DNA of 64,000 nt from a bacterium (GCA_965218795.1 OZ244653.1:1-64000), one strand, 5' to 3'; numbered from the stretch's first letter, positions 8,103-49,372 are shown. Translations and numbers: made by a program. Notes: generated by a model not told the origin, from the sequence alone.

Positions 8103-11100
8103 ATGACGAATAGCGAGCCGTCTTCCGGATCGCCATCCCTGGATTTCCTCCGGCAGTTTCTCCGGTCCGCTGAAATCCATTTGCGGCTTTGGAATCTTTT
8201 GCAGACCGGCCTCTGGGCGGTCGGATTGGGCTGCGTCGTTATCCTCCTGGGGATCGGAGCCAATACGCTACGGGATGTATGGGCATTCACCCCGCCCGTG
8301 TTCGCAGGCTTGGCCGTCTGTCTCGCAGTTTGGGCTTTTGGGGTCCTATTGTGGAAGGGATTCCGGAGAATTCCTTCCGACCAGGTCGCCTTTCTCATCG
8401 AACAGCGCCGTCCCGATCTCAATAATTCTTTGATCAGTTCGGTACAGCTCACCCGGCAAGGTCTGCCCGGAGAGGGAGAGCGTGCATCGGGGAGACATTC
8501 TTCTCTGGTCGACGCGCTCCTCCGGCGGACGGCCGAGGCGGTCCGGTCTATTCCGGCGGGTGAAGCGGTTGAGCGCTCTCAGATTCGCCGGCCGGGCCAG
8601 TTCGCCGCGACACTGGCCGCCCTTATACTGATGGTTGCTTTTTTCAGGCCCGGTTTGCTGTCGGAATCCTGGAAGCTTCTGATTCACCCGATTGACAGCA
8701 TGCCCCTGCGGGCGATTTCCATTCAGACTCAACCGGCTTCGGGCAAAATTCTGCTGGGTCGCCCGATCACCCTGACCGCAACGACAAGCGGCAGACGGAC
8801 GAAGACGCTGCAGGTCGAAATCCGGCCGGAACAGGGAAAACCACAGACCCTGGAAATGACCCCGGTCGTTCCAGCCGATGGGGAGAAGAGGGAATTCACC
8901 TACCGGACGCCCCCGGTGAGAGGTTCTTTTTCTTACCGTGCCTTTGTCGGAGGCGAAACATCCGAGCCCCAGCGTTTGGAGGCGGTTCCGCCGCCGGCCG
9001 TCGGCGAGATGCAAGCTGTTTACACCTACCCCCGGTACACCGGGCTGAAGCGTGAGGTGCGCAAGGGCAGCGGATACGTCCGAGCATTGATGGGAACGGA
9101 GGTCACGCTCTCGCTGAAGACGAATAAACCCGTCGAGTCGGGCCGGTTGGTGTTCCAGTCCGGAGCGGAAGTGCCGCTGGATGTGGCCGACCCCCAAAAT
9201 CCGCGAGGCCGTTTCATCGTCCTCTCCAAAGACAGCTACCGGATCATCCTGCGTGACCGCTGGGGTTTTGAGAATCCGGACCCTGTCCGCTACGCCATCG
9301 ACGTCGCCCCGGACCGTATCCCCGCCATTGAAATGTTGACACCGAAAGGGGAACTGACGGTCAACGGGGGAGAAACCATCGGGATTCAGTACTTGGCCCG
9401 GGACGATTTCGGCATCGAAGACATCCGTCTCGTCCTCCACTCCACCGTTGGCGCCAGCGCCCGCAAGGCGGGTGCGGAAGGGAAGGGGGGCCGCCGGGAG
9501 GTTCTCATCTCCAAGATCAACGGGACGAAGCGGTGGGAATCGGGCCGTTACGAGTGGGATCTGAGGGACCTCGGTCTCGGGCCCGGCTCGATTGTGACGA
9601 CCCGTCTCGCGGTCCGGGACAACGACGCCATCTCCGGGCCCAAGGAAGGGTTCTCCAAACCCGTGCGCATTCGTGTCCGCAGCCCGGAGGAAGAGCATAA
9701 GCGCGTCAAGGACCTTCAAAAGAATTTGACCGACCGAATCCTCGGCCTTCTGGGGGATCAACTGGAGCTGGAAGCCGACGCGTCGGAAAAACTCGGGGAG
9801 TCCCCCGATGGTCTGGACCGGCGGGAGGATTCCGCGAAAACGCGTCCCCCGACCTCGATGGAAGACAGGCACGCACTGCGCCAGACATCCGAGCGCATCG
9901 AGGAAGACGTTCGAAGCCTGATTTCTGAAATTGACCGGGTCATGAGCCGGACGGCGCGCGACCGGCAGAGCGGGTACGATTCTTTCGCCGATCTGAACGC
10001 CCTGCGGAGCAATCTGTTTTATCTTCAGCGCGAGATGATGCCCCAGGCCAGGAAGCCTATCGAGGGCGGCAACGGCCCGTCGACACAGCCCGGGACGGAA
10101 CCTTCACCACCGGCACGGGGTTCCTCGCCCCCAGCGGAGAAAAACCGGCGGGCGGAATCTCTCGAGCGTTTCCGTGACGCCCAAAGGAACGTCACGCGTG
10201 AGATCGAACGCATGGCCGTCTTTGCCGACGACATCGGGAAGCGAAGCCAAATACGTGATCTGGCCCGGCTGGGCCGCCAGCTCGCGAGCGCCCAGAACCG
10301 GATGCTGGATGCCTTTGACCGGGCCAAGGATGGTGACCCCGCCGCCCGAAAGGCCCTCGAGGAAACCTTGGCCAAACTCCGGGATCTCTTGAACAAGCTC
10401 TCCCAGAGGCTCAGAAATCTTCCCGTCCAGCTCCCTGAGGAATTCATGAATATGCCGACGAATCAGTCCCTGAACATGAGCGATATCTCCAGGCGGCTTC
10501 AGGAGATCCAGCGAAAGATGCGGCAGGGAGACATGGAAGGGGCGAGAAGGCTGGCCGAACAGATGGTCAAGTCCCTGTCCCAGATGATCGCAGCGCTTCA
10601 GGGCGCCATGCAGCAGGCGATGAACCAGGCCTCCAACCGGTTCGGCCGATCGGCTCAGCGGCAGCAGAACATCCTCCAGGAACTGCTGGCCCGCCAGCGG
10701 GCCCTGTTGGACAAGACACGCAAGATTGAAAGTCCGATGATGGAGAAGTACAGGGACCTCCAGCGGCAGGCATTCGAGCGGGTGGAAGGCGAGGCCGGTC
10801 GGGCGCTCCAGGAGCTTCGCAGGCTGGGGAAAGAGATCGAGGACCTTCCCCTGCCCCTGGCCGATCAGTTCCCCGGTGAGAAGGAAGGGGAGGCTCTTGA
10901 GCGCTCGCTGAATCGCCGGGAACTCAAGGATGCGGGCAAGACGGCCGACGCGCTGGGCGGTCTTTCACGAAAAGTGGCTGAAGCCGTTCGTCATCTCAAG
11001 CAGGAGGAAGCGCCCCCCGACGAGTCCCCCGTCGTCACGGGTTACCGAAAGCTGGGAGACGATTTCGACAAGCTGAGAGAGGGTCTCAATCAGCTTCCGA

Positions 11101-42353: not shown

Positions 42354-42560
42354 TCAAATGCCCCGGTCGTCGTACGGATCGGCCTTTTTCTCTTCCTCAA
42401 CCTTCCGGTAGTCATTCTGAAAGTCTTCGACGAGCTGGTCGATCTCGTTCTTCGCGGGGTTTTCACCCGATTGCCTGAAGCGGGTCACGAAGTACGCCAC
42501 AACGAGCGCCAGCAATATCCCGACGGCCAGCCCATCAAGGAAGAGGCGGTAAGAACCCAT
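42354..42560 (-). CDS. Small single-TM hypothetical protein (68 aa)
   Basis: ATG preceded by aggag; N-terminal TM helix and charged tail. Confidence 0.5.
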   Translation of the reverse strand: MGSYRLFLDGLAVGILLALVVAYFVTRFRQSGENPAKNEIDQLVEDFQNDYRKVEEEKKADPYDDRGI

Positions 42561-43048
42561 CGCTCTCTTCTCCTGCCCTTCAGAGGATTCGAGTCCAAAT
42601 TACTTGTTCGGATCGCGTGTTGTCAACGGGTCCATCCTTCTCATCGATCCCCCGTTTGAGCGGGAGCCGGGGTTCAGAAAAATCCATTCCAGGGCGGCTT
42701 TTGGGGAGGCAACGCGCCCCCGCGATGTAGCGGCACCCCGCGAAAATGGAGCAGGCCGCGCTTGCCGCCTATCGCAAGCAGGATGTCTTAACGAAGTAGC
42801 CGGTTGCCTCAAGGCCAATGCTTCCGAAGAGCAAATTCGCGTGGAATGTCCCCCCCCAGGCCCATTGGCCTTCCCCCGCTCACCAGAGGGATGCGCTTGC
42901 GGTGGGAACGCCCCTCATGCAAGATGTTGCGGAATTTCCGTTCGGCCTTGCAGCCTGATAGAAGATCTTCGGGGAAAGGATGCCATCGGGATTGCATAAG
43001 ACCGGCGCCCCTCGCAAATAGCAGAAGATAATTCGAAACCGGCTTGTC

Positions 43049-44517
43049 ATGTTCTTCCGCACAATCATGGTATGGATTCAGAAGATTTTGTTGTTGCTTG
43101 TTTCATCGGCCCTGGCTCTGGTCGGAGCTGAAGTTTTCGTTCGCTATTACGAGCCGCAGGTTCTGAGCTTTCCGCACTCCCGGAAGAACTTCGCGCCACC
43201 CATCTTTCAGGCAAACGACAAGTGGCTCTTCGAGTTGCGTCCGGGGACCGATTACGACCATAAAAGCCCGTATGGAGACTTCCGGGTCAATGTGCGCGTA
43301 AATCGGGAAGGGTTCCGGGGACGGGAGATATCGGCGCAGAAGCCCGCCGGGACTTTTCGAATCTTCCTTCTAGGGGATTCGTTTACCTTCGGACTCGGTG
43401 TCGAGAATGACGAAACCTATGCGGCCGTATTGGAGGCTGGGTTAAACGAAGACGCCAGGAACGGTCCACGTTACGAGGTTATCAATGGCGGCGTTCGGGG
43501 TACAACTTGGCGCATTATTACCTCGCACTCCAACACAAGGTCTTCCGGTACGATCCGGATTTGATCCTCATCGGAATTCTGCCTTGGAACGATTGGGATC
43601 TGGCCAAACAAGACTGGGTGGCAGAACGGAACGGATTGCCCGACGCCCTGCGTCAAGAATTGTTCGTCGACGCCGAAGGGCGGGTGCGGCTGAAAAATGC
43701 GGATGTCCTTCAGGTCCAATCGACCCGGTTCAATTTCCTGCCCGAGTGGATGAAATGGCTCCTGCGCGAACATTTGCACGTTTACCATTTCCTCGGGGAA
43801 CGTCTGGACCGGTATCGAAATAACCTTCGGGAATCTTCGAAACGAGAGTTTTGGGGAAAGGCGGAAGCCGCGGAGCTTACGGAGGACTCCTTACGATCTC
43901 AGGGGCTGAGCCCCGAAGCCATCCGGGCAAGGCTGAAAGAGCAGAAACGGCAAAATTGGCTGAAGGGGTTGGCTCTCCTGGAGGCAATCGTTCAGCGGGT
44001 CAGAGCTCAGGCCACGCTGTTGGGAGTGATGCTCCTCCCTCACCTTTACGAATCCCATTCTGACATCCTGATCCCGCAATTTACCTATTGGCCCAGTCAA
44101 GACACTGGGAGGCTGCTTCTACAATGGCTGGGGAAACGAAAAGTTCCAGTTCTGAATTTAGTTCGGCTTTTGGATCCACATGACGAAAAACGCCTGTACC
44201 TGCGTTACGATAAACACTTCACCCCGCTCGGAAACCGGTTGGTGGCCCAGGCGCTCATCTCGTTTCTGCGAAATCATCAGCTGCTTCCCGCTCAAGAGGC
44301 TGCGGGAAAGGAACGTATTTCAAGCAAGAAGGAAGTAGAAAATGAACGTGATCGTCAAACTGGGCAAACTTCTTTACAAGGGATGGATGGCGTTCGCCTA
44401 CGCGTTGGGATGGGTCAACACCCGAATCCTCCTCGTGCTGTTCTTTTTTCTGGTCATCACGCCCGTGTCCCTGGTTCTGCGGATGATTGGCAAGGACCCG
44501 CTCTTGCGGCGCTCTGA
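43049..44517 (+). CDS. Membrane-anchored SGNH/GDSL-fold protein; frameshift at the G4 run 43497-43500; true 3' end probably near 44340
   Basis: N-terminal TM ending E.FVR, N..GFRG, LGDSFTFG, NGGV(R)GY after adding one base, ND, DKHF..GN; current stop overlaps the next gene by 176 nt. Confidence 0.75.
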
Positions 44518-44593
44518 GCCTGATTTGAAAAGTTACTGGATTGCCAGGGAGAAGGGGTCCTTCGACCGCGAGTCCTACCTGCGGCAGTTCTAG
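44342..44593 (+). CDS. SxtJ-family small membrane protein
   Basis: WM.FA..LG..NT.I.L...FF..ITP, GKDPL, SYW, terminal QF. Confidence 0.8.
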   Translation: MNVIVKLGKLLYKGWMAFAYALGWVNTRILLVLFFFLVITPVSLVLRMIGKDPLLRRSEPDLKSYWIAREKGSFDRESYLRQF

Positions 44594-44627
44594 GGATCCC
44601 ATGAGTTGATGAATGAGAAGGAACTCG

Positions 44628-46376
44628 ATGGCCACTCATATCCTCGGGATCTCCTGCTTCTACCATGACGCGGCCGCCTGCCTGGTCCGGAACGGGGAGA
44701 TCATCGCGGCCGCTTCCGAAGAGCGGTTCACACGAAAGAAGCACGACGCGGACTTTCCCCTGAATGCGGCCCGGTACTGTCTGGAAGAGGGCAAGATCGG
44801 GATGGCCGACTTGGATTACGTGGGCTTTTACGACAAGCCCTTCACGAAGTTCGAACGGATACTGGAGACCTATCTGGCCGTCGCGCCGCGCGGTATCAAG
44901 TCATGGGTCATGGCCGTTCCGCTCTGGCTCAAAGAAAAAATCTTCATGCGGAAGACCATCCATGAAATGCTGCCCGATTACGGAGGGGATGTTCTTTTCT
45001 CAGAGCATCACGAGTCCCACGCGGCCAGCGCCTTCTACTGCTCGCCCTTTGATGAGGCCGCCATCCTGACGCTGGACGGCGTCGGGGAGTGGGCCACGGC
45101 CGCCAAGGGGGTGGGGCGGGGGGAGAGGCTCAAGCTTACCCACGAGATTCGATTCCCCCACTCCCTGGGACTCCTGTACACCGCCTTGACGTATTATCTC
45201 GGTTTCAAGGTCAACAGCGGGGAATACAAGGTCATGGGTCTGGCGCCGTACGGCGAGCCCAAGTACTTCGACCTGATGATGGAGAATCTGGTGGACGTCA
45301 AGCCGGATGGAAGCTTCCGGCTGAACATGGATTACTTTGCCTACACGCATGACCTGAAAATGATCAACCAGCGGTTCAATCAACTGTTCGGAGGCCCTCC
45401 GCGCGTTCCCGAAACATGGCTCGAACAACGGGAATTCGATATCGCCGCGTCGATTCAGAAGGTGACCGAAGAAATCGTTTTGCGCCTCTGCCGGAGTCTT
45501 CACGCCGAAACCGGGCTCGACAACATCTGTCTGGCCGGCGGCGTGGCGCTCAACTGCGTGGCCAACGGAAAGATCCTGAAAGAGACACCGTTCAAGGACA
45601 TCTATGTCCAACCAGCCGCGGGAGACGCCGGGGGCGCGGTCGGGGTGGCGAAGCTCATCTGGCACCGCTATTTGGGGAAGGAGCGGCAGCGTCCGCTGCC
45701 CAACGCCTACCTGGGGCCCGAATATTCCAATGAGGAGATTCGCAGGTTCCTCGACGACAAGGCCGTTCCCTATCGGGAGGTGACGTCGGAGGATCTGACC
45801 GACGAAGTGGCCCGCCTGATTGAAGAGAAGAACGTCATCGGGTGGTTCCAGGGCCGCATGGAGTTCGGCCCGCGCGCCCTTGGCAGCCGGAGCATCTTGG
45901 GCGATGCCAGGGACCCGGAGATGCGAAGCACCGTGAACATGCGCATCAAGTTCCGAGAGGGTTTTCGGCCCTTTGCCCCCTCAGTGACGATGGAGGGCTG
46001 CTCGGAATGGTTCGATCTGGAGCACCCGAGCCCCTATATGTTGTTGGTGGCCGACGTACGCGAAGGAAAGCGGGAAATTCCCTCGGTGACCCATGTGGAT
46101 AATTCCGCCAGGATTCAGACCGTCACCGAAGAGGAGAACCCCCTCTACTACCGCCTGCTCAAGGCGTTCGAGGCGCGGACTGGGGTTCCGGTGATCATCA
46201 ACACGTCGTTCAACGTGCGAGGCGAGCCGATCGTTCGTACCCCGGCGGACGCCTACCTCTGTTTCATGCGGACGGACATGGATTTTCTGGCGATCGGGAA
46301 CTTCCTGCTCGACAAGAAATCGCAGCCGGAACTGAAGGACGATGTGGACTGGCGGTCGCAGTTTGAGTTGGATTAG
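44628..46376 (+). CDS. NodU/CmcH/SxtI-family O-carbamoyltransferase
   Basis: YHDAAA, EERF.R.KH, HHESHA, DGVGE, KVMGLAPYG, AGGVALN, EFGPRALG.RS, RPFAP, HVD.SAR.Q, NTSFN. Confidence 0.95.
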   Translation: MATHILGISCFYHDAAACLVRNGEIIAAASEERFTRKKHDADFPLNAARYCLEEGKIGMADLDYVGFYDKPFTKFERILETYLAVAPRGIKSWVMAVPLWLKEKIFMRKTIHEMLPDYGGDVLFSEHHESHAASAFYCSPFDEAAILTLDGVGEWATAAKGVGRGERLKLTHEIRFPHSLGLLYTALTYYLGFKVNSGEYKVMGLAPYGEPKYFDLMMENLVDVKPDGSFRLNMDYFAYTHDLKMINQRFNQLFGGPPRVPETWLEQREFDIAASIQKVTEEIVLRLCRSLHAETGLDNICLAGGVALNCVANGKILKETPFKDIYVQPAAGDAGGAVGVAKLIWHRYLGKERQRPLPNAYLGPEYSNEEIRRFLDDKAVPYREVTSEDLTDEVARLIEEKNVIGWFQGRMEFGPRALGSRSILGDARDPEMRSTVNMRIKFREGFRPFAPSVTMEGCSEWFDLEHPSPYMLLVADVREGKREIPSVTHVDNSARIQTVTEEENPLYYRLLKAFEARTGVPVIINTSFNVRGEPIVRTPADAYLCFMRTDMDFLAIGNFLLDKKSQPELKDDVDWRSQFELD

Positions 46377-46412
46377 ATCCGAACGAGGCCGGGGAACGCT
46401 GGGATTCAACAG

Positions 46413-46451
46413 AAAAAGAGCCGGGAGTCCGTCGTCTGACTCCCGGCTCTT
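46413..46451 (-). terminator. Intrinsic terminator between convergent genes
   Basis: 14-bp stem aagagccgggagtc / gactcccggctctt with a T-run on the minus strand. Confidence 0.75.
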
Positions 46452-46509
46452 AGTTCGATCGCCGCGTTGGGTCCCGGCGGCGCGGGCCGCGGGAACCTGC
46501 TCTCACCGG

Positions 46510-46668
46510 CTAGAAAATCGCATAAATAAACGGCGCCAGCGCCGACCCTTCCGTGAAGATAATCAGGAAGCTTAAAAGCACCAACATGAGCAGAATCGGG
46601 GTAAGCCACCATTTCTTGCGGTGCTTGAGAAAGTCCCAGAACTCAACCATCAAGCTCACGTTGCCCAT
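46510..46668 (-). CDS. SxtK/DUF5989-family 52-aa membrane peptide
   Basis: MGNVSLMVEFWDFLKHRKKWWLTP-(TM)-EGSALAPFIYAIF; RBS aggag upstream of ATG 46668. Confidence 0.85.
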   Translation of the reverse strand: MGNVSLMVEFWDFLKHRKKWWLTPILLMLVLLSFLIIFTEGSALAPFIYAIF

Positions 46669-46868
46669 GCTTCCAACTCCTGTGATATCAAAAATGTGAC
46701 CGGGGGGAGCCTCCGACCTGGAACCGCCGCCCCAACGCGGGCCTATATATAGCACACAGGCATCCGGGACGCCAAGGGAATCGTTGATCATCGGAAGATG
46801 GCTGTGATAGGTTGATTTCGTACACGATTTCGGGAAGCGTCTCGCCTCACCCTCCCTTGAATGACCCC

Positions 46869-47255
46869 ATGATTCGTCTGAAGAGTATCTACGCCGAAGC
46901 CGAACCTGAGGACGGTACGCGTATCCTCGTCATGCGCCGGTGGCCGAGGGGTGTCAAGAAGGAGCGGATCGATGAGTGGGTCCGGGGCGTGAGCCCCAGC
47001 TGGGCACTATTGCAGGCCCGCCAGTCCAAGGAAATCGCCGCTTCCCGTTTTTTCGAGAAATACCGGCGGGAAATGTCCGCTCAGACGGAGGTTCTGGAAG
47101 AGCTCGCCCGACGGGAAAAAGCGGAGACCCTGACCTTGCTCTGTTGGGAAGCGAAGGATGAGGATTGCCACAGACATGTGCTGAAGGCCCTCATCGAAGA
47201 AACCGGAAGCCGGTCCGAGCAGCCCTTGAAGACCCGGAGGAAGCGATCCAGGTGA
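46869..47255 (+). CDS. DUF488/YeaO-family protein
   Basis: DG.RILV.R.WPRG.KK, SPS..L, F...Y..E, LLCWE....CHR. Confidence 0.85.
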   Translation: MIRLKSIYAEAEPEDGTRILVMRRWPRGVKKERIDEWVRGVSPSWALLQARQSKEIAASRFFEKYRREMSAQTEVLEELARREKAETLTLLCWEAKDEDCHRHVLKALIEETGSRSEQPLKTRRKRSR

Positions 47256-49372
47256 GCGCCCGCCGTTACAAACTGGCCGTCCCGACCGGCCCGAGCTCCT
47301 CTTCTATCGATTATGCCGTCGAACTGAACGATCAACAGTTGGAGGTCGTCATGGCGGAGAGCGGCCCGATGCTCGTCATCGCCGGAGCGGGAAGTGGGAA
47401 GACCCGCACGGTGACCTACCGGCTGGCCCGCCTCATCGAATCGGGCGAAAACCCCGGGCGGATCCTGCTGCTGACGTTTACCAACAAGGCCGCCGGCGAG
47501 ATGCTCCGGCGAGCGGAGGGCTTGGTCCGGGCCAATGTCCGCCACGTCTGGGGGGGGACCTTCCATCACGTCGGCAACCTCATTCTGCGCCGGCATGCGA
47601 AAGCAATCGGCCACCGCGGAAACTATTCCATCCAGGATCGGGAGGATTCCGCCGACCTGATCGATACCTGCGCGGCAGAGTCCGGGATCAACCCGAAAGA
47701 GCGCTTTTTCCCCAAAGGGGCTGTTCTGCGGGACATTTTGAGCTATTCCCTCAACACCGACAGGCCCGTTGAGGAAATCGTCCTTCAGCGTTACGGGGGG
47801 TTCCAGGACTGTCTCCCGAAGATGAAGGAGGTCTATGGCCGGTATGCTGAACGCAAGATCGAGATGAACGTCCTGGATTTCGATGATTTGCTCACCCTTT
47901 GGCTTCGTTTGCTGGAGGATCAGCCGGATATCCGGTCCCAGTACCAGGAGCAGTTTCGCCACATTCTTGTCGACGAGTACCAGGACACCAATCACCTGCA
48001 AGGGCGGCTGATCGATCTGCTGGCCGACGGACATCGGAACCTCATGGTGGTCGGCGACGACGCGCAGAGCATCTATTCGTTTCGCGGTGCGGACTTCACG
48101 AACATTCTCGAGTTCCCCAAACGGTATCCCGACGCGGCCATCCATCGGTTGGAATTCAATTACCGGAGCAGTCCGGAAATCCTTCAGCTGGCCAACGCCA
48201 GCATCTCGGTGAACGCTCACCAGTTTGAAAAGCGGCTCCGGGCCGAGCAGCCGCCGGGCGAGCGTCCCGCCGTGATTCCGGTTCGGGACGTCCTCCAGCA
48301 GGCCGACTTCGTTTGTCAGCGGGTGTTGGAGCTGCGCGACGAGGATGTTCCGCTGGAAGAGATTGGGGTTCTCTACCGGGCGCATTTCCATTCCATGGAA
48401 TTGCAGATGGAGCTGACGCGGCGCGGGGTTCCTTTCCAGGTTCGATCGGGTCTCCGGTTTTTCGAACAGCGTCACGTCAAAGACGCAACCGCTCATCTGA
48501 AGGTGGTCGTGAATCCAAGGGATGAGATCGCCTGGAAGCGCGTATTGCAGCTGCTCCCCGGCGTTGGAAAGGCGACGGCCCACAGGTTTTGGCGCGCCGT
48601 CTGCGCATCCTCCGATCCACTCGGGGAACTGGGGAGCGAGGGGTTCCAGGCCATTTTCCCCAAGCGCGCCAAGGGTGAATGGCGGCGGCTGGCCGAGACC
48701 CTCCAGGACATGCGCGGGGAGGCTAGAGAGGACGGTCCGGCAGAAATGATTCGCCTCGTCCTGGACCACGGCTACCGGGACTACCTGAGCCGCCATTTTC
48801 CAAATGCCGCCGCGCGGATGGAGGATCTGGAGCAGTTGGCACGTTTCGCGGAGCAATTCGAGGCGACGGATGCCTTCTTGAGCGAGCTGGCCCTGATGAC
48901 GACGGTGGGCGAGGATACCGCGGAGGAAGAGGATCCGGACGGGTTGCTGGTCCTCAGCTCGGTCCACCAGGCGAAGGGGCTGGAGTGGAAGGTGGTGTTC
49001 GTGTTGTGGCTTGTCGAGGAGCGCTTCCCTTCGGGGCTCGCCCTCCGGGAAAGCGGGGAGGACGAGGAGGAGCGCAGGCTCTTTTACGTCGCTGTGACGC
49101 GCGCGAAGAAAAACCTGTACCTATGCTATCCGTTGCTGGAGATGGGCCGACACCGAACGGGCACCCTGACCAAACCCTCCCGCTTTCTGAAAGAACTGCC
49201 GGAAACGGTCTACGAGCAGTGGACCATAGAGGAGGATTCCTTCGGTCGCCCGGAAGAGCCGGAAGGCGGAGAAGGGGGAAACGGGCGTCCGGCCGGGTCG
49301 CATTCCAGGGCCGGGGGAGACGATCGTTGGGTGGATGAACATTTTGAACAGAGGGACCCTGCGGATTTTTAG
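47252..49372 (+). CDS. UvrD/PcrA/Rep-family SF1A DNA helicase
   Basis: AGAGSGKT, TFTNKAA, DEYQD, VGDDAQSIYSFRGA, NYRS, HQAKGLEW, EERRLFYVAVTRA. Confidence 0.95.
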   Translation: MSARRYKLAVPTGPSSSSIDYAVELNDQQLEVVMAESGPMLVIAGAGSGKTRTVTYRLARLIESGENPGRILLLTFTNKAAGEMLRRAEGLVRANVRHVWGGTFHHVGNLILRRHAKAIGHRGNYSIQDREDSADLIDTCAAESGINPKERFFPKGAVLRDILSYSLNTDRPVEEIVLQRYGGFQDCLPKMKEVYGRYAERKIEMNVLDFDDLLTLWLRLLEDQPDIRSQYQEQFRHILVDEYQDTNHLQGRLIDLLADGHRNLMVVGDDAQSIYSFRGADFTNILEFPKRYPDAAIHRLEFNYRSSPEILQLANASISVNAHQFEKRLRAEQPPGERPAVIPVRDVLQQADFVCQRVLELRDEDVPLEEIGVLYRAHFHSMELQMELTRRGVPFQVRSGLRFFEQRHVKDATAHLKVVVNPRDEIAWKRVLQLLPGVGKATAHRFWRAVCASSDPLGELGSEGFQAIFPKRAKGEWRRLAETLQDMRGEAREDGPAEMIRLVLDHGYRDYLSRHFPNAAARMEDLEQLARFAEQFEATDAFLSELALMTTVGEDTAEEEDPDGLLVLSSVHQAKGLEWKVVFVLWLVEERFPSGLALRESGEDEEERRLFYVAVTRAKKNLYLCYPLLEMGRHRTGTLTKPSRFLKELPETVYEQWTIEEDSFGRPEEPEGGEGGNGRPAGSHSRAGGDDRWVDEHFEQRDPADF

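Follow-up and report, generated by a model that had tools for sequence, protein, structure and literature searches.

Can a soluble carbamoyltransferase pass its group to the outside of a bacterial cell through the tail of a membrane microprotein? The question is raised by positions 43049-46668 of a 64,000-nt stretch of bacterial DNA (GCA_965218795.1 OZ244653.1:1-64000, hereafter the window). In this locus a first-pass annotation had seen a carbamoyltransferase (CT), an SxtJ-like membrane protein, a membrane-anchored SGNH protein and a DltX-like peptide, and had read them as a possible relay that moves a carbamoyl group through a tyrosine of the peptide to the SGNH serine. All four genes are real, with two exceptions to that first description: the reading frame of the SGNH gene is broken, and the peptide gene lies on the other strand. 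The locus belongs to a very widespread module whose core consists of the CT, SxtJ and the peptide, which belongs to DUF5989, and in which a membrane-anchored SGNH protein is a frequent accessory. The reading of the four genes as a carbamoyl relay is partly supported. By analogy with the tyrosine acyl shuttle, the locus may encode a variant of that shuttle that works without a membrane-bound O-acyltransferase (MBOAT), a proposal to which we give somewhat less than an even chance.

A microprotein with an invariant tyrosine tail

The peptide gene (46510-46668, minus strand) encodes a DUF5989 (SxtK-type) microprotein of 52 residues that matches PF19451 over profile positions 2-49 of 49 (80.6 bits, cut-off 27; E 8.5e-23), and an AGGAG lies 9 nt before its ATG. 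An amphipathic N-terminal helix carrying a KHRKK patch is followed by one transmembrane (TM) helix (residues 21-39) and by the tail EGSALAPFIYAIF-COOH. The length, the basic patch, the single TM helix and the FIYAIF end that were first described are thus all seen; what has to be added is that the gene runs on the minus strand, convergent with the CT gene. In the gap between the two genes lies a 14-bp G+C-rich hairpin (46416-46451, a consensus match only), which is followed by a T-run on the minus strand and is therefore likely to be the terminator of the peptide gene. A scan of 42500-47300 for sigma-70-like promoters gave none, against an expectation of 1.6. The window genome has 73,180 stop-to-stop frames of 40 or more codons; two of them end in F.Y..F, and the peptide is one of these two.

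DUF5989 is common. A word-indexed search returned 732 matches, the best 120 of which are 65-90% identical to the query, while a representative library holds 3178 clusters at E<=0.001 and contigs taken from one genome per species hold at least 588 confirmed places. Isolates of Magnetospirillum and Melioribacter are among the carriers listed. Across many phyla the peptide remains 50-90% identical. The tyrosine is kept in 270 of 270 homologues, and FxYxxF forms the exact C-terminus in 248 of them; another 15 have residues after the motif, and 7 are near-variants such as YIYAIF, FIYALG and MIYAMF. The usual ending is FIY[ATS][LI]F. When per-position entropy was calculated over 265 DUF5989 sequences, the tail (residues 40-52) proved to be the most conserved segment of the peptide, with a mean of 0.55 bits as against 0.91 bits for the amphipathic, basic helix, 1.18 bits for the TM helix and 2.22 bits for the N-terminus. 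The tyrosine column itself has an entropy of 0.0 bits.

The net charge of the peptide is +2 before the helix and -1 after it. From this bias (charge only, no dedicated topology predictor) an N-in/C-out orientation is predicted, which would place the tail outside the cytoplasm. Two predicted fusion proteins agree with this orientation, although read-through or mis-calling is possible for both: P0367 (621 aa, 5 member sequences), in which a full CT continues into the peptide, and P0242 (390 aa), with the layout TM helix, outer domain, TM helix, peptide.

The likeness to DltX that was first proposed holds in part. Size and the FIYAIF tail fit, whereas membership in the DltX family does not show by profile: even with the limit set to E<=10, none of 20 DUF5989 members matches PF12459, although very weak matches may be lost to the HMMER filters. 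A PDB profile search with the peptide returned no DltX chain; its one match, to a signal peptide (E 5.3), is put down to chance. In the phylum of genome G051 (record labelled Clostridia), PF12459 stands above its cut-off in 0 of 151 genomes. The tail was also compared with those of MBOATs, by an hhalign run in which the peptide alignment was set against the C-terminal 60 residues of five such proteins. The probability was 55%, and it fell to 3.6% once the last eight columns were removed from both sides; the controls gave 1.4% for SxtJ, 0.1-0.9% for other MBOAT segments and 35% for the SGNH membrane anchor. Since the likeness is gone without the last eight columns, it amounts to a shared motif on a similar scaffold rather than to demonstrable homology.

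The carbamoyltransferase and SxtJ

The CT gene (44613-46376, plus strand) encodes 587 residues and is intact, as the first-pass annotation had stated. Its product covers positions 1-345 of 346 of PF02543 (E 7.8e-99) and 1-170 of 170 of PF16861 (E 3.4e-73), so that both the Kae1-like N-terminal and the YrdC-like C-terminal domain are full length and uninterrupted. Residues 15-574 align with the solved carbamoyltransferases 7xb6, GdmN, NovN and TobZ (E 1e-87 to 1e-99), and residues 15-568 pair with TobZ residues 17-572. An HHESH stretch is visible in the translation. To judge from these matches, the protein is a putative ATP-dependent O-carbamoyltransferase of the TobZ/GdmN/NovN type. It is not NodU proper, scoring 137.1 bits against the NCBIfam NodU equivalog NF041651, whose cut-off is 1000. 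The CT contains no hydrophobic or TM segment and is therefore taken as cytoplasmic.

Upstream of the CT gene lies sxtJ (44342-44593, plus strand), whose 83-residue product is the SxtJ-like membrane protein that had been reported, above the PF19588 cut-off (49.5 bits, cut-off 24.4; E 7.7e-13). Only positions 53-98 of the 99 in this profile are matched, which marks the protein as a short form; the same short form is found in the same-genus genome G003 and in other loci of SxtJ-CT order. In SxtJ a hydrophobic hairpin is joined by a basic C-terminal tail with RQF as its last residues, and the protein is 72% identical to the G003 orthologue. Among its relatives, 44 of the 44 aligned match PF19588 and no other family consistently, with no likeness to a channel or an acyltransferase. 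The CT, SxtJ and the peptide are all intact in the window, 72-88% identical to their G003 orthologues, and arranged in the same way.

A widespread module

In a survey of 80 DUF5989 loci with flanks of up to 10 kb, a CT gene lies within 7 kb of the peptide gene in 62 loci and sxtJ in 61, and the gap between sxtJ and the peptide gene has a median of 14 nt. The prevailing order is CT-SxtJ-K, where K is the peptide (40 loci), followed by SxtJ-K-CT (11), SxtJ-CT-K (6) and K-SxtJ-CT (4); one locus has CT and K only, and in 18, some of them on cut contigs, K stands alone. Genomes in which the peptide gene lies away from any CT gene nevertheless have a CT elsewhere (5 of 5), and in four cases that CT is beside SxtJ. 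All 28 DUF5989 genomes tested encode a CT. The 51 genomes available for the window phylum, which are kin and not independent, give the same picture: DUF5989 is present in 23 and CT in 27, with all 23 among the 27, and DUF5989 occurs in 0 of the 24 CT-less genomes. A single genus accounts for 23 of the negatives.

The linkage of the genes varies among relatives. In genomes of the same family or class (G002, G004 and G007) the peptide gene is separated from SxtJ-CT by 26 kb, by 120 kb or by lying on another contig, and a second, divergent copy of DUF5989 directly follows another transferase in G004 and G005. The suggestion that the module sits within a defined glycan cluster was rejected, as its nearest neighbours are heterogeneous and only 4 of 129 belong to GT2.

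An SGNH protein as a frequent accessory

SGNH genes were sought with a hidden Markov model built from those that neighbour the module, and matches were found in 33 of the 80 loci. When only matches of at least 200 aa with E<1e-10 are counted, an SGNH gene of the AlgX/AlgJ-like kind lies within 500 nt of the module edge in 22. The density within this distance is 3.17 per 10 kb, falling to 0.32, 0.26, 0.04, 0.09 and 0.08 in successive outer bins, so that SGNH genes are enriched near the modules about ten-fold or more over distant flanks. Ten SGNH genes, in nine loci, are on the same strand as the peptide gene and at most 130 nt from it. GDSL is also the commonest family (16 members) among 129 nearest-neighbour open reading frames (ORFs) scanned out of 147, the remaining 18, longer than 760 aa, having been left out; the next families have 5 members each and come from Pelagibacter kin, GT2 has 4, and neither MBOAT nor AT3 is among the top 25 families of this set. 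Where the peptide gene stands apart from CT-SxtJ, it has SGNH genes at its flanks in three loci (L060, L073 and L059), while other such loci have unrelated neighbours. One of the three, L059 on a Nitrospinaceae contig, also contains a 27-codon frame ending in CFIYKQF (10690-10773, plus strand) about 0.6 kb downstream of the DUF5989 gene, which may be due to chance or may be another tyrosine-tailed micro-ORF.

The family profile is of mixed character. Its N-terminal half finds its best matches in plain GDSL esterases, and its C-terminal half matches AlgX (4knc), AlgJ (4o8v), PatB1 (5v8e) and CgnD (8a2n, E 1.9e-12). Ser97 and His379 (G003 numbering) are invariant in an alignment of 47 sequences. 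In a quick tree, poorly resolved and with many long branches, SGNH proteins that flank the peptide are intermixed with those that flank MBOATs; one SGNH protein from beside the peptide falls into a clade (SH-aLRT 97) with two from the flanks of a motif-bearing MBOAT.

At the window locus the SGNH/GDSL-fold gene occupies 43049-44517 on the plus strand. The first-pass annotation had described a membrane-anchored protein with GDS, ND and DxH blocks. The N-terminal hydrophobic anchor, the AlgX/AlgJ-like C-terminal half and the blocks (LGDSFTFG, NGGV.G, WNDW and DKHF) are present, but there is no single open frame: the blocks are spread over two ORFs in different frames (43049-43564 and 43507-44517), split by a 1-base deletion at 43495/43496. 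Against PF13472 the N piece reaches 19.3 bits, and against PF16822 (ALGX, cut-off 26.5) the C piece reaches 35 bits. An intact orthologue of 436 aa in G003 matches both pieces, with 74% and 65% identity (tblastn), and the junction between the two frames reads ...GGV(R/P)G|YNLAHYY. Contigs of three runs from three studies (X5, X7 and X8) carry an extra C behind 43495, which reopens the frame and gives GGVPGYNLAHYY. The contig of a fourth run, X1, is near-identical to the window and lacks the extra C; it is possibly the source of the assembly, and as the two may share data, the deletion may be a shared error. The SGNH gene is therefore frameshifted either in the genome or in its data, and whole in close relatives, and the SGNH step is probably disabled in the window genome. 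A programmed frameshift was also considered and rejected, given that near-identical strains simply carry one more C.

The second SGNH frame extends 176 nt past the start of sxtJ (44342-44517). In G003 the orthologue ends about 58 codons earlier, near the sxtJ start, and the long overlap may thus be peculiar to the window genome. Outside the window, at about 4.28 Mb of the same genome, lies a second, decayed CT-SGNH pair (G000:C1:4281003-4282886, minus strand; locus L003, 4281195-4284338). Its CT is reduced to 232 aa, with residues 8-57 joined to 424-570 (numbering of the window enzyme) and 58-423 lost, and the SGNH gene that follows, of the same family, has an in-frame TAA. With the frameshift at the window and the TAA at 4.28 Mb, both SGNH copies of this family in the genome look disrupted.

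Absence of MBOAT proteins

The first-pass annotation had named the lack of an MBOAT in the window as its weak point. This lack extends to the whole genome, and is thus no gap of the window: PF03062 is not found in the genome (a single contig, 98.9% complete), nor in any of the 51 genomes of its phylum. Of the other carrier genomes, searched in two sets, 4 of 5 and 4 of 5 have no MBOAT.

Among the 80 loci, four contain an MBOAT-like ORF, three of these beside an SGNH gene. All four end in a shuttle tail of their own (AFIYAQF, KFIYFDF, PFIYFQF and VFIYSTF, the last in a shifted frame), and two MBOATs of another carrier genome end in QFIYFQF. The idea that DUF5989 serves nearby MBOATs was accordingly rejected; as these proteins have their own tails, DUF5989 is no stand-in for a missing MBOAT tail there. 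The frame-shifted case lies on a Candidatus Peribacter contig (L080:13192-13410, minus strand), where a 372-aa MBOAT ORF without a shuttle tail is overlapped at its 3' end, in another frame, by a TM helix and an FIYSTF end. Either the MBOAT gene is frameshifted here, or the arrangement is a split one of the DltX kind.

Surroundings of the locus

The genes around the locus are of housekeeping kinds (HemD, histidine phosphatase, SDR, DUF488, UvrD and TrkA). A family scan of these neighbours agrees with the first-pass annotation that no toxin, polyketide synthase or glycosyltransferase gene adjoins the locus. Among the matches listed, the closest public relatives carry the label Nitrospinota. The DUF488 gene (46812-47255, plus strand; PF22751, E 4.1e-30) is divergent from the peptide gene, and the pairing of DUF5989 with DUF488 recurs in a contig of a Nitrospinota metagenome-assembled genome and, with no transferase nearby, in the same-family genome G002 (L028 and L112). 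Just upstream of the SGNH gene, on the opposite strand, a 68-aa ORF (42354-42560, minus strand) encodes a single hydrophobic helix plus an acidic tail and matches no family significantly (best Pfam E 0.016).

A proposed carbamoyl relay and its rivals

The motif FXYXXF is placed, in passages of PMC12148441, at the C-terminal end of DltX and bacterial MBOATs, outside the cytoplasm, where its tyrosine carries an acyl group to the serine of an SGNH partner. An MBOAT-independent relay of the same kind would begin with the cytoplasmic CT, which would form carbamoyl-AMP from carbamoyl phosphate and ATP. This reaction is established for TobZ-type enzymes. SxtJ and the basic amphipathic N-terminus of the peptide would keep the CT at the membrane, and the FIYxxF tail would receive the carbamoyl group on its invariant tyrosine, which would thereby become an aryl carbamate. 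At the outer face, the catalytic serine of the AlgX/AlgJ-like SGNH protein would take over the carbamoyl group and hand it on to an envelope component, at a hydroxyl. Aryl carbamates react with serine hydrolases and leave a carbamoyl group on the active-site serine, and a transfer of this sort is chemically ordinary. How the tyrosine might be loaded is a matter of speculation: the short peptide could be carbamoylated, in a stoichiometric manner, before its post-translational insertion, or oligomers of SxtJ and the peptide could form a conduit. The chemical steps, the topology and, most of all, the route of the carbamoyl group to the outside tail are inferred.

The relay is favoured because, within the peptide, constraint is strongest on the far-side tail, and because this tail copies a motif whose only known role is the covalent transfer of groups to SGNH enzymes. 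It is favoured further because the peptide never occurs without a carbamoyltransferase, and because the one extra neighbour that recurs is an SGNH protein whose catalytic pair is intact. Three of the five refuting conditions set out for the relay were put to the sequences (tyrosine conservation, the predicted side of the tail and SGNH enrichment near the modules), and it was refuted by none of them.

Several observations weigh against the relay. Its weak link is loading, in that the CT lacks any membrane segment and a position on the opposite face of the membrane is predicted for the tail, and the module contains nothing resembling a known conduit, the relatives of SxtJ matching PF19588 only. 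If a CT fused to the peptide were loaded before insertion, it would be a single-turnover enzyme, so that a plain membrane anchor fits the fusion better. DUF5989 is not DltX by profile, and it is the last eight residues that make it resemble MBOAT tails. The genetic linkage is also imperfect: the peptide gene is unlinked from SxtJ-CT in the relatives G002, G007 and G004, and in the window it is convergent and probably transcribed separately. As for the SGNH partner, its gene is frameshifted in the window, it does not abut the module in 58 of 80 loci, and among five genomes that have the full module without an adjacent SGNH gene, only two encode a full-length family member elsewhere (two of the others have partial, weaker matches only, and one has none). 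In two of the 22 abutting loci (L072 and L080) the SGNH protein may belong to a neighbouring MBOAT with its own tail.

The main rival to the relay is a tether or scaffold without covalent chemistry, an explanation that we consider rather unlikely. SxtJ and DUF5989 would dock, and perhaps activate, the CT at the inner face of the membrane, where it would modify a lipid-linked or membrane-bound acceptor before export; the tail would bind SxtJ or a periplasmic partner, and the SGNH protein would be an ordinary esterase that trims carbamoyl or acetyl groups, as has been guessed for SxtL. Such an arrangement requires no membrane-crossing step, and the predicted CT::DUF5989 fusion resembles a tail-anchored enzyme. 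It would also account for the conservation of the basic amphipathic helix, for the lack of an SGNH gene beside most of the modules and in some carrier genomes, and for the resemblance of the N-terminal half of the SGNH profile to plain GDSL esterases; SxtL is annotated as a possible decarbamoylase in passages of PMC2885083 and PMC2679770. A tether does not readily explain why the 13-residue far-side tail is the most conserved part of the peptide, with an invariant tyrosine and a fixed C-terminal end, or why it reproduces the catalytic shuttle motif found in DltX and MBOATs, FIYxxF-COOH included. Nor does it explain why the peptide, where it is unlinked from CT-SxtJ, travels with SGNH genes.

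The locus might instead be a decaying remnant in the window genome, with an SGNH pseudogene, a peptide gene that is a mere neighbour, and a CT that acts alone on a soluble or cytoplasmic acceptor. This is improbable. The frameshift at 43495/43496 is found both in the window and in the X1 contig, the CT-SGNH pair at 4.28 Mb has clearly decayed, and the peptide gene is convergent and has a likely terminator of its own; on the other side, the CT, SxtJ and the peptide are intact and closely resemble their G003 orthologues in a like arrangement, three near-identical populations (X5, X7 and X8) keep the SGNH frame open, and the X1 contig may share the data of the assembly, and with it an error. [quoted passage not shown] The constant co-occurrence of peptide and CT would fit, and so would the crocagin pathway, in which a precursor peptide is acted on by CgnI and CgnD (passages of PMC10070186), the latter being matched by the SGNH profile. 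However, a TM helix and 50-90% identity across phyla are unlike a fast-evolving RiPP precursor, and the peptide has neither a leader/core organisation nor genes for RiPP recognition or export beside it.

Significance and prior work

SxtJ and SxtK have had no function assigned to them since the saxitoxin cluster was described, and the carriers of DUF5989 include abundant lineages of ocean and soil. If the relay is true, the recently established acyl-tyrosine shuttle of D-alanylation and O-acetylation would extend to carbamoylation and to bacteria that lack MBOATs, and a widespread carbamoylated envelope component would be indicated. If it is false, one CT branch still has a near-universal partner whose conserved tail points to an unexplained function in the periplasm. 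A broader proposal, which we regard as doubtful, is that SxtJ, DUF5989/SxtK and a soluble CT constitute a third trans-membrane group-transfer machine beside MBOAT and AT3, one that would load an extracytoplasmic tyrosine and hand the carbamoyl group to SGNH transferases. This would provide functions for SxtJ, SxtK and SxtL, and would imply that envelope molecules, and perhaps exported metabolites, are O-carbamoylated outside the cytoplasm in many phyla and lineages, among them SAR11, Nitrospinota, Planctomycetota and Omnitrophota.

In the literature searched, no paper names DUF5989, joins FXYXXF with carbamoyl, or ties a carbamoyltransferase to two or more of acyl shuttle, microprotein and SGNH; a survey of motif-bearing proteins in a 2023 DltX study may affect the question of novelty. 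The first-pass annotation had added that the relay would give SxtJ/SxtK-family proteins a function outside toxin clusters. This point is only partly new, since uncharacterised homologues are mentioned in passages of two reviews (PMC2885083; PMC2684587). Already in print, as far as passages of the sources go, are the sxtI-J-K-L neighbourhood, its uncharacterised homologues, the conjecture that SxtI works 'with' SxtJ and SxtK, and a further one that makes SxtL a decarbamoylase (PMC2679770; PMC2885083; PMC2684587; PMC12300590).

Comparison with known systems

In the crocagin pathway, as described in passages of PMC10070186, a carbamoyltransferase (CgnI) and an SGNH-fold hydrolase (CgnD) that releases the core scaffold from the precursor act on one ribosomal peptide. 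The combination recalls the present locus, whose SGNH profile matches CgnD. Crocagin biosynthesis is however a soluble RiPP pathway with a leader peptide and a dioxygenase, neither of which is found here, and DUF5989 is a highly conserved membrane peptide. TobZ, GdmN and NovN resemble the CT over its full length and in both domains (E 1e-87 to 1e-99). As far as is known, these enzymes act alone on soluble antibiotics, and we know of no description of them with SxtJ or DUF5989 partners.

The same gene families are found in the cyanobacterial saxitoxin set SxtI-SxtJ-SxtK(-SxtL), in which an O-carbamoyltransferase, SxtJ (PF19588), a protein of about 54 aa and a GDSL lipase share one neighbourhood. 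SxtK is here equated with DUF5989, and SxtL with the present SGNH family, by size, order and Pfam naming. Passages of PMC2885083 and PMC2684587 list sxtI, sxtJ and sxtK together with the GDSL lipase gene sxtL and note uncharacterised homologues, and in PMC2679770 and PMC2684587, likewise in part, the four genes have consecutive accessions and a phylogenetic origin in common, sxtK measuring 165 bp. [quoted passage not shown] The window locus differs from the saxitoxin clusters in having no other sxt gene.

PatA-PatB, AlgI-AlgJ/AlgX and other MBOAT-SGNH pairs, in which the MBOAT itself carries the shuttle motif as a fused part, offer nearly the same endings. Neisseria gonorrhoeae PatA ends in FIYANF, and the model given for it places a peripheral cytoplasmic helix and the last TM helix before the motif (passages of PMC12148441). 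This order of peripheral helix, TM helix and motif is also that of DUF5989, and FIYANF and the MBOAT tails FIYFQF, FIYAQF and FIYFDF stand close to FIY[ATS][LI]F. The C-terminal half of the SGNH protein matches AlgX, AlgJ and PatB1, in a profile that also matches many plain esterases. In contrast to the MBOAT-SGNH pairs, DUF5989 is free-standing, and MBOATs are absent from most of the carrier genomes tested.

Compared with DltX-DltB-DltD, the donor here would be a soluble ATP-dependent carbamoyltransferase instead of a carrier-protein thioester, SxtJ is an additional partner, no MBOAT (DltB) is present in the genome or phylum, and the group transferred would be carbamoyl and not D-alanyl. What the two systems share is a membrane-anchored SGNH-type partner and a microprotein of roughly 50 aa that has a single TM helix and ends in FxYxxF with an invariant tyrosine; here, tail and partner are predicted to lie on the same, extracytoplasmic face of the membrane.

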